Translations under genes and position numbers: made by a program | Shown: positions 9,345 to 61,148 of the stretch, piece by piece | How the letters are laid out: each line of letters begins with the position of its first letter | Position numbering within the stretch: the stretch's first letter is position 1 | From: Octopus vulgaris | Taxonomy: Eukaryota | Assembly: GCA_951406725.2 (NCBI GenBank) | Contig: OX597832.1 | Span: 11,594,001-11,658,000 of the forward strand | DNA: 64,000 nt | Direction of reading: 5' to 3' | The notes under the pieces: generated by a model | Seen by the model: only the letters and a program-made list of their open reading frames with translations | Told to the model about the DNA's origin: nothing | Database searches by the model: none

Positions 9345-10080
9345 ATTGCGAGCTAGCAGTATCGTTCGAACGTCGGTCAAAATGCTTAGCAGAACTTCGA
9401 CCGTCATTACGTAGTGCGTTCAAAATCCACCGGGAATGACTTTCGTTTTCATCATTTTGGATTCGACTTTGCCTTTCATCCTTTCGGGGTCGATTAAATA
9501 AGTACCAGTTACGTACTGCGGTCGATATAATCGACTTCATCCGTTTGTCTGTCCTTGTTTTTTCCCCTCTGTGTTTAGCCCCTTGTTGGTAGTAAAGAAA
9601 TAGGTATTTCGTCTGCCGATACGTTCTGAGTTCAAATTCCGCCGAGGTCGACTTTGCCTTTCATCATTTCAGACTCGATAAATTAAGTACCAGTTACGCA
9701 CTGGGGTCGATATAATCGACTTAATCCGTTTGTCTGTCCTTGTTTGTTCCCTCTGTGTTTAGCCCCTTGTGGGTAGTAAAGAAATAGGTATTTCGTCTGC
9801 CGTTACGTTCTGAGTTCAAATTCCGCCGAGATCGACTTTGCCTTTCATCCTTTCGGGGTCGATAAATTAAGTACCAATTACGCACTGAGGTCGATATACT
9901 CGACTTGATCAGTTTGTCTGTCCTTGTTCGCCCTCTCTGTGTTTAGCCCCTTGTGGGTAGTAAAGAAATAGGCATTTCGTCTGTCTTTATGTTTTGAGTT
10001 CAAATTCCGCCGGGGTCGACTTTGCCTTTTATGCTTTCGTGGTCGAGAAATTAAGTACTAGGTGAATACGGGAGTCGATT
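9345..10080 (+). repeat. Tandem array of SINE family B, 184-bp head-less units
   Basis: Unit start tagg(t/c)atttcgtctg recurs at 9601, 9785 and 9969, preceded by one copy that retains the head. Confidence 0.92.
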
Positions 10081-60256: not shown

Positions 60257-60302
<46 letters not shown>

Positions 60303-60306
<4 letters not shown>

Positions 60307-61111
60307 TAATGAGGGAGATAAATTAATATTAATTTTAATATCAATTTAAAACCAGTAGTCCAGCATTCAAAAAATCTGAGAAGTCAGAGAAAATTCTAAT
60401 ATATGTGTATATAGGCAGGGCTGGCCTGCTAGGTAGCCGGCCGAATACTAGAAAGAGATCATCAACGATCAAACTACAAGGAAATTCTCTAGAGGAAGAA
60501 TTCAGCGAACACCAGAACCAAATTTGGCGGGCAGGACATATGAAAATTTAAATAAAAAACAGACTTAAATGCATACCTCGGTTTCGGTCTTTAACAAAAG
60601 AATTACTTACATAATTCAAATGTCCGTGACTTCATCAGTACATTCGGTCATCGAGATGCAAACCGTAAAACTAACCCCAGCTCTCTGTGTCAAGACAGAC
60701 ACGTGCATAGTTTTACCGTTTACATCGGAGATAAAATTTCAAATGTCTTGGTTCTGGCGCGCTAAGAAATTCCTGAAGCGAAGGACTGCAGTGAATAATT
60801 CACTGCGGTTAGTGCTTACTACTAGGGAACGTATTTATTTCAATATTTAAGTAATGAGGGAGATAAATTAATATTAATTTTAATATCAATTTAAAACCAG
60901 TAGTCCAGCATTCAAAAAATCTGAGAAGTCAGAGAAAATTCTAATATATTTAAGTCTGTTTTTTATTTAAATTTTCATATGTCCTGCCCGCCAAATTTGG
61001 TTCTGGTGTTCGCTGAATTCTTCCTCTAGAGAATTTCCCTTGTAGTTTGATCGTTGATGATCTCTTTCTAGTATTCGGCCGGCTACCTAGCAGGCCAGCC
61101 CTGCCTATATA
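60303..61111 (-). mobile_element. Retrozyme/PLE-like cassette: 545-bp-period partial tandem plus inverted terminal segment, in (TA)n
   Basis: Direct repeat 60303-60404 = 60848-60949 and inverted repeat 60408-60570 vs 60948-61111, with no mismatches seen by eye. Hammerhead at 60568-60644; TA tracts on both sides. Confidence 0.8.
60568..60644 (-). ncRNA. Type I hammerhead ribozyme with extended stem II
   Basis: Minus strand aatgta-CTGATGA-agtc...gaca..gaattat(gtaa)gtaattc..tgtt...gacc-GAAA-c(cgag)-GTA-tgcatt. 6-bp stem I, long stem II capped by a GUAA tetraloop, short stem III, GUA cleavage triplet. The first stem II pair is an A-C mismatch. Confidence 0.85.
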
Positions 61112-61117
61112 TACATA

Positions 61118-61148
<31 letters not shown>

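Follow-up and report, generated by a model that had tools for sequence, protein, structure and literature searches.

The insertion at positions 60303–61111 of the window (the whole 64,000-nt stretch of Octopus vulgaris DNA analyzed here, OX597832.1, 11594001–11658000, within 2.8 Gb of searched genome) is one young insertion of a family of 545-nt non-coding hammerhead repeats, a new member of the already known class of animal non-LTR retrozymes; a preliminary description of this DNA had left the novelty of the family open, and the class to which it belongs was already described. That the family is a Penelope-mobilized hammerhead repeat can be held with high confidence. It is also probable, at a lower level of assurance, that a Penelope reverse transcriptase produces the insertion pattern by internal priming of both strands and rolling copying of a circle, and to the same degree that a circle is the main template.

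Unit positions are numbered on the minus strand, with u1 at 60847 and u545 at 60303. The insertion and its flanks contain the following features.

60303–61111, no strand: whole insertion, in which two (TA)n tracts enclose an inverted 5′ arm and a direct arm
60303–60847, minus: one full 545-nt unit, u1–u545, 37% GC, non-coding
60848–60949, minus: u444–u545, last 102 nt of the preceding unit, identical to 60303–60404
60948–61111, plus: inverted arm, copy of u278–u440, merging into TA to about u449
60562–60649, minus: type I hammerhead fold, u199–u286
60573–60574, minus: predicted cleavage site after GUA, u274/u275 (sequence and the standard hammerhead consensus, available sections of PMC3088659)
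60303–60312, minus: site A, AT-rich 3′ end common to the family (115 of 126 direct arms)
60399–60413, minus: site B, TA/CA-like stretch, u435–u449 (62 of 81 inverted arms)
60655–60726, minus: long hairpin upstream of the hammerhead; subfamilies and a sister family retain it, with two-sided changes
60678–60680, minus: u168–u170, recurrent 5′ stop of copied arms (stop counts and junctions)
60788–60806, minus: short 8-pair hairpin, conserved; the sister family shows one two-sided change
60260–60304, no strand: (TA)n target tract, 3′ side
61106–61148, no strand: (TA)n target tract, 5′ side

The minus strand from 60949 to 60303 comprises 1.19 copies of the unit; in self-comparison 60949–60848 equals 60404–60303 (100% over 102 nt, period 545 nt), which bears out the period and redundant ends first reported. 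The minus-strand order given in the preliminary description, A′-C′-hammerhead-B′-A′, stands in those ends; the stretch 61111–60948 is not upstream sequence, being an overlooked inverted copy of 60408–60570 (99.4% over 164 nt), and the layout of the insertion is an inverted arm followed by 1.19 direct units. The outer end of the inverted arm is site B, its inner end lies 3 nt inside the predicted 3′ cleavage product, and its source segment adjoins the hammerhead cut on the 3′ side. The other structural claims proved right: (TA)n tracts lie on both sides, the two further hairpins named earlier are present in the unit, and there is no recognizable open reading frame (ORF), no ATG frame in three turns of the unit exceeding 93 aa. 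The unit folds better than shuffled sequences on both strands (z −5.8 minus, −4.8 plus). Elsewhere in the window, a 184-nt unit, SINE-like by eye, is repeated 3.2 times in tandem at 9463–10058 (90% match).

The hammerhead was confirmed on the minus strand, as first described, with its core at CUGAUGA (60638–60632) and GAAA (60585–60582); stem I consists of six pairs, an internal loop and three pairs, stem II is long with its extension capped by a GNRA loop (GUAA), and stem III is semi-palindromic with two pairs. The A10.1 (60631)·C11.1 (60586) mismatch and the predicted cut between 60574 and 60573 are likewise where they had been placed; a two-pair stem III, read earlier as a possible weakness, is ordinary for invertebrate hammerheads in the accessible text of PMC7229834. 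Pair 10.1–11.1 is the most conserved after 15.1–16.1, and an active hammerhead with U-U at this position is reported (available sections of PMC3088659). Conservation of the core across genomic copies, proposed earlier as a check, is evident in 176 full-length motifs (117 of 152 loci), many of the loci having been picked on motif letters: core bases hardly vary, except N7, which does so freely (U 93, A 79, C 4), and the GNRA loop is kept. Two-sided change was seen in 7 of 25 helix pairs over 20 hand-picked rows, in which 95.6% of cells are paired vs. 32–41% in slid controls, a level that 0 of 500 shuffles reached; these counts come from related sequences, many of them motif-selected, and relatedness inflates them.

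Older copies have G-C or A-U at 10.1–11.1 and young copies A·C, and this position is unpaired in 13 of the 20 rows; within A·C copies, stem II follows a path from C-G through U-G to U-A. To judge from these alignments, selection on the hammerhead fold seems to have continued after the A·C change, and the hammerhead probably still matters because compensatory change continued after G10.1A. In ViennaRNA calculations stem I is at about 0.9 in the isolated motif and about 0.1 in the circle, and stem III at 0.01 in monomer or circle and −6.6 kcal/mol as a dimer duplex; predicted cleavage is likely to be slow, dimeric or protein-assisted. At u182 and u184 (window 60666 and 60664), in the internal loop of the long hairpin, G>T and G>A changes recur, frequently in combination, in individual units at 7–8 loci, and at one locus (L015) one unit has been converted to the perfect complement of the other arm. 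CpG decay would account for u184 only.

The family is large and dispersed. A 21-nt motif from the 3′ end has 917 exact matches in the genome (control 0), a 19-nt motif of the young hammerhead 310 (control 0), and two older versions of the hammerhead motif 54 and 28 (controls 0 and 1). Contigs C1 and C2 (to 70.5 Mb) contain 78 sites that account for 98 matches of the 3′ motif, a ratio that gives an estimate of about 730 insertions with the exact 3′ motif. A DNA search of the genome returned at least 222 matches from the 40 candidates scored of 1374; the copies lie on at least 20 large contigs, and unit length across them is 545–546 nt. Two pairs of insertions (L071/L072 and L137/L138), each pair with the same flank and about 300 kb apart, are likely segmental duplications. 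A sister family, with 104 matches to its own motif at one mismatch allowed (loci L297–L326, e.g., L303 and L316:1590–1980), is 71–83% identical to the unit in matched stretches and has the same sites A and B and the same tandem junction; its hammerhead, kept in 6 of 30 loci read, has different stems, G10.1–C11.1 and the same fold. A long contig ending in a 3′-end match was considered as a helper element and rejected, its motif having led to this non-coding sister family.

Hammerhead covariance models had been suggested as a further check, and the Rfam scan returned TA-repeat miRNA noise and no hammerhead family at E ≤ 10; the fold probably goes unscored owing to its open stem I and 46-nt stem II. 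A loose type I hammerhead pattern, which excludes the long stem II of this family, has 17,309 genome matches vs. 1,542 in the control, so the 545-nt family is one of many hammerhead families in the genome. Other such families, of which L274/L275, L287/L288, and L285/L286 are examples, have a palindromic stem III, often mismatched at 10.1–11.1 (A·A, U·U), and several occur in tandem or inverted pairs with periods near 546–560 nt. Another hammerhead repeat forms an inverted pair at L179 (300–620 and 2900–3263, minus strand), in (TA)n right behind a Penelope 3′ end.

Copy anatomy was mapped at 133 loci and retained for 126, a set enriched for hammerhead-containing copies; the seven dropped were two duplicates of a neighbor, one chance-length match, three complex or split loci, and one that overlapped a locus edge or was unoriented. 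An unbiased set was drawn with the 3′ motif as sole criterion, and 73 of its 78 sites were used (five dropped). An inverted plus a direct arm is present at 73 of the 126 loci and a direct arm only at 46, with a simple TA, TG, or CA repeat on both sides at 100. Direct arms end at site A (u530–545) in 115 of 126 cases and at site B in four, and 62 of 81 inverted arms end at site B (u440–450). The preliminary description had envisaged circularly permuted copies; the genome copies end at these two fixed sites, not at random, and random circular permutation is rejected. At site A junctions the unit continues 0–25 nt into the next unit before (TA)n, and the template must therefore have extended past site A. 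Of 63 ends at site B, 12 have a run of (CA)≥4 that grows directly from the ACAC there (in older sets, 9 of 30), compared with 1 of 119 ends at site A and none of 167 internal passes; stutter at initiation is a simpler reading of these runs than pre-existing compound microsatellites.

Arms exceed one unit in 60 of 207 cases and two units in 8, the longest being 2124 nt (up to 3.9 units). The predicted cut is crossed by 131 of the 207 arms, by 25 of them two or more times, and by 59 of 118 arms in the unbiased set. No LTR pair was found in the copy anatomy, and (TA)n targets hide target-site duplications. The earlier proposal of a Penelope-type insertion is upheld as regards the fixed 3′ end, 5′ truncation, 5′ inversion, tandem units, and TA targets. 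In L1 twin priming, a 5′ inverted segment is primed at an internal TA-like site, and the window copy has the same geometry; classic twin priming is rejected as a general rule, however, as only 4 of 73 two-arm loci have a direct arm starting where the inverted arm primed (chance about 3.3). Fold-back self-copying likewise fails as a general rule, with 7 of 73 loci fitting (chance 1.7), and inverted arms can exceed direct arms. The two arms of a locus are independent (4 of 73 fit twin priming, 7 of 73 have the same end place); they overlap freely, and either can span several units.

The template of these arms was approached through shared variants and stops. In the main subfamily (76 loci), units of one arm differ by 0.63%, units of the two arms of a locus by 0.79% and units of different loci by 2.1%. 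Where at least two units overlap, locus-private variants are carried by all units in 19 cases, by some in 1, and by one in 128, the last being later mutation; 15 are present on both arms. Common variants are carried by all units in 290 of 331 locus-cases, and at one locus (L041) the arms are of two haplotypes. The haplotype sharing fits repeated copying of a single unit, in keeping with the earlier suggestion of a template copied more than once round; L041 speaks against a purely circular template. With u182/u184 left out, unit-specific differences common to two loci number 29 pairs vs. 23.1 ± 4.5 expected, about chance, and two locus pairs, each spanning subfamilies, share two such differences (null 0.3). 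Heterogeneous multi-unit masters as the source were rejected, these differences giving no clear signal of such inheritance. A-to-I editing fixed in the copies was also rejected (template-borne variants include 6 A>G and 10 T>C sites, no excess). Arms stop at u168–170 ten times vs. 0.95 expected (6 vs. 1.1 at u166–172 in the unbiased set), and this stop is possibly an RNA 5′ end or a strong pause. Downstream of the cut, u275–295 (21 nt 3′ of it) has a mild excess of stops (13 vs. 4.8, nominal P 0.0015; as the best of 524 overlapping windows, P about 0.04 for 25 independent windows), which would suit cut linear templates or a pause at the fold; exactly at the cut there is no hard stop (4 vs. 1.9 at u274–278; 2 vs. 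1.5 at u272–278, unbiased set). A mix of circular and linear templates is likely.

The same family and the same Penelope enzyme would also serve if the template were uncut linear RNA, from transcripts of a tandem locus that start near u169 and read through slow hammerheads; copying would proceed from sites A and B, long arrays would come from multi-unit sources or template jumps, and the ribozyme would act late, rarely, or only with protein. The sharp stop at u169, with its varied junction partners and frequent extra T, recurs at about u166 in 3 of 67 older arms, and two arms that stop at u168–170 after crossing two hammerheads look like an uncut linear end; yet only 12 of 141 passes through u166–172 stop there. 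The A·C mismatch at a normally paired position and the poor predicted folding in context also speak for uncut RNA, and a 1.7-unit source could regenerate itself if its promoter were internal, but no inherited unit-position-specific variants were found, and the private variants in all of the 4–6 segments of L091 and L024 need a step from one unit to many. The compensatory change after G10.1A, again, implies a hammerhead that still matters. For a Penelope protein, according to the available portion of PMC11167929, the hammerhead is not needed and unprocessed RNA is the main template, a result that supports the linear template. On balance, uncut linear RNA as the template is rather unlikely, and the circle is retained as the main one.

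Candidates for the enzyme are present in the genome. A GIY-YIG search gave at least 148 matches among the 150 scored of 6136 candidates, 16 of the 148 lying in an intact 781-aa frame that encodes a reverse transcriptase (RT), a CX4CxxC linker and GIY-YIG, the Neptune/Nematis layout; a Penelope-like element (PLE) of this type has been tentatively linked to (TA)n targets (accessible part of PMC8557442). Of the intact Penelope copies, eight were read, and every one terminates in (TA)n; the end sites number two, separated by 40 nt, and an inverted 5′ arm is present in one copy. The family and the intact elements thus use the same (TA)n targets, and a Neptune-type Penelope is a candidate helper. 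A young element of this kind (L199:244–5460, also L196–L203) has a separate upstream 479-aa ORF, with no good Pfam match, that overlaps the 781-aa RT/GIY-YIG ORF, as well as repeated CCAAT/TGACGTC-like motifs, and its pseudo-LTR carries a U3/A8-type hammerhead variant. A second Penelope family (L206:2582–4950, L075, L080, L210, and L225) has the same linker motif and copies that are 95% identical.

If the unit were itself the pseudo-LTR of an unsampled autonomous Penelope, its copies would be the 5′-truncated ends of that element; PLE pseudo-LTRs do carry hammerheads and form tandem or inverted ends (available text of PMC8557442), and the GIY-YIG candidates scored are 150 of 6136. Against this, none of 179 family loci has a Penelope ORF joined to the unit, the arrangement for which a check had been proposed, and arms of up to 3.9 units hold only the unit with seamless junctions, as they do in the sister family. 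Seven nearby Penelope fragments are on the opposite strand or are set off by TA or distance. The unit did not align with Penelope termini beyond about 2 sd of shuffles (25 loci), and comparison with 15 longer stretches and the 25 GIY-YIG loci (150 of 6136 candidates scored) gave no homology to a terminal repeat; the likeness of the unit to PLE ends is a loose T-rich/AAATAT one. We therefore consider an origin as a pseudo-LTR very improbable, and an independent repeat using a Penelope enzyme is the preferred reading. A DNA-level satellite, local duplication, or assembly artifact with a chance or dead hammerhead, to which nearly identical tandem units and the difficulty of assembling (TA)n might point, is largely refuted by the dispersal over contigs, fixed ends, polar truncation, inversions, structure-keeping changes and family pieces at ≥90% in contigs of independent public runs, which also answer the earlier concern over assembly. 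Pieces of the family likewise occur in contigs of runs presumed to be RNA, assemblies in which neither strand nor ends nor circles are visible.

By sequence, the family has what defines animal non-LTR retrozymes: a hammerhead per unit, tandem dispersed units, no coding capacity and GC under 50%. As far as the available texts go (PMC7229834; 10.64898/2026.07.22.740005), it shares with them non-coding low-GC tandem units that each carry a type I hammerhead, dispersal as monomers to multimers, and proposed Penelope mobilization via circles; a two-pair stem III is found among them as well, as are mismatches at the base of stem II (axolotl HHR_Amex2, U·U; PMC7229834). The 545-nt unit is longer than the typical 150–450 nt (PMC7229834) and falls within the 51–972 nt given in 10.64898/2026.07.22.740005. 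The octopus family differs in its strict (TA)n targets, and the retrozyme text available (PMC7229834; 10.64898/2026.07.22.740005) mentions neither a pair of fixed start sites nor head-to-head arms nor (CA)n stutter. No pseudo-LTR homology was found for it, whereas 21 of 57 Xenopus families match, and one of nine Xenopus elements cleaved in vitro (available part of 10.64898/2026.07.22.740005). A literature search of a partial library found no paper on the family or on two-site, two-arm retrozyme insertions; supplements, Repbase, or Dfam may list the family.

With PLEs (Neptune/Nematis and Poseidon PAc), the family has in common partial tandems, an inverted 5′ copy and microsatellite targets (PMC8557442; PMC11167929, in the sections available), as well as, for Poseidon PAc, two internal start sites of reverse transcription with both strands extended (PMC11167929). 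Unlike a PLE, the unit has no ORF with RT and GIY-YIG; its start sites are about 95 nt apart rather than 30–40 (accessible text of PMC8557442 and PMC11167929), and they are used asymmetrically, site A for the direct and site B for the inverted arm. The hammerhead is of the extended type, whereas that of the genome's own PLE is the minimal U3/A8 variant. In the available portion of PMC11167929, nicking and extension of the two strands of AT-rich DNA are shown for a purified Penelope protein, which begins copying within its own RNA, at two sites in an AC-rich loop; this supports the internal priming proposed here and also the linear template.

The course of events that we consider probable would begin with transcription of tandem loci. 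The hammerhead is predicted to cut after GUA, in a probably slow or dimer-dependent reaction, and circles would arise by ligation of some of the monomers. A Neptune-type Penelope protein may then nick both strands of a (TA)n tract, and copying would start from one DNA end at site A and from the other at site B, the end positions being those observed in the arms; stutter on ACAC at site B would sometimes add (CA)n. The cDNAs would extend 3′→5′ on the template over differing lengths, passing the cut junction and making as many as about four turns, and be joined head to head as the inverted 5′ arm and direct arm seen in the copies, or one arm would be kept. A minority of arms likely derive from linear RNA, with stops at u169 and just 3′ of the cut. 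In its fullest form the proposal is tentative: at a single (TA)n break a Neptune-type Penelope would extend the two strands on one shared circle, beginning at two fixed sites within it and stuttering in a telomerase-like way at one of them, and the RNA would be an independent, long-lived parasite that keeps its whole fold across about 30% divergence without sequence shared with its helper.

Retrozyme integration and the use of circles as templates are hypothesized in the available sections of PMC7229834, and evidence on the life cycle is described as limited in those of 10.64898/2026.07.22.740005. The octopus provides a young family with hundreds of readable junctions, in a genome that also holds intact Penelope ORFs with the same targets, and a natural allelic series at the 10.1–11.1 pair of the hammerhead. 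It offers exact predictions (starts at sites A and B, a stop at u169, a cut at u274/u275 and multimers from a circle), and its insertion record is unusually clear and testable. If the tentative proposal is true, each insertion can seed a new (CA)n microsatellite.
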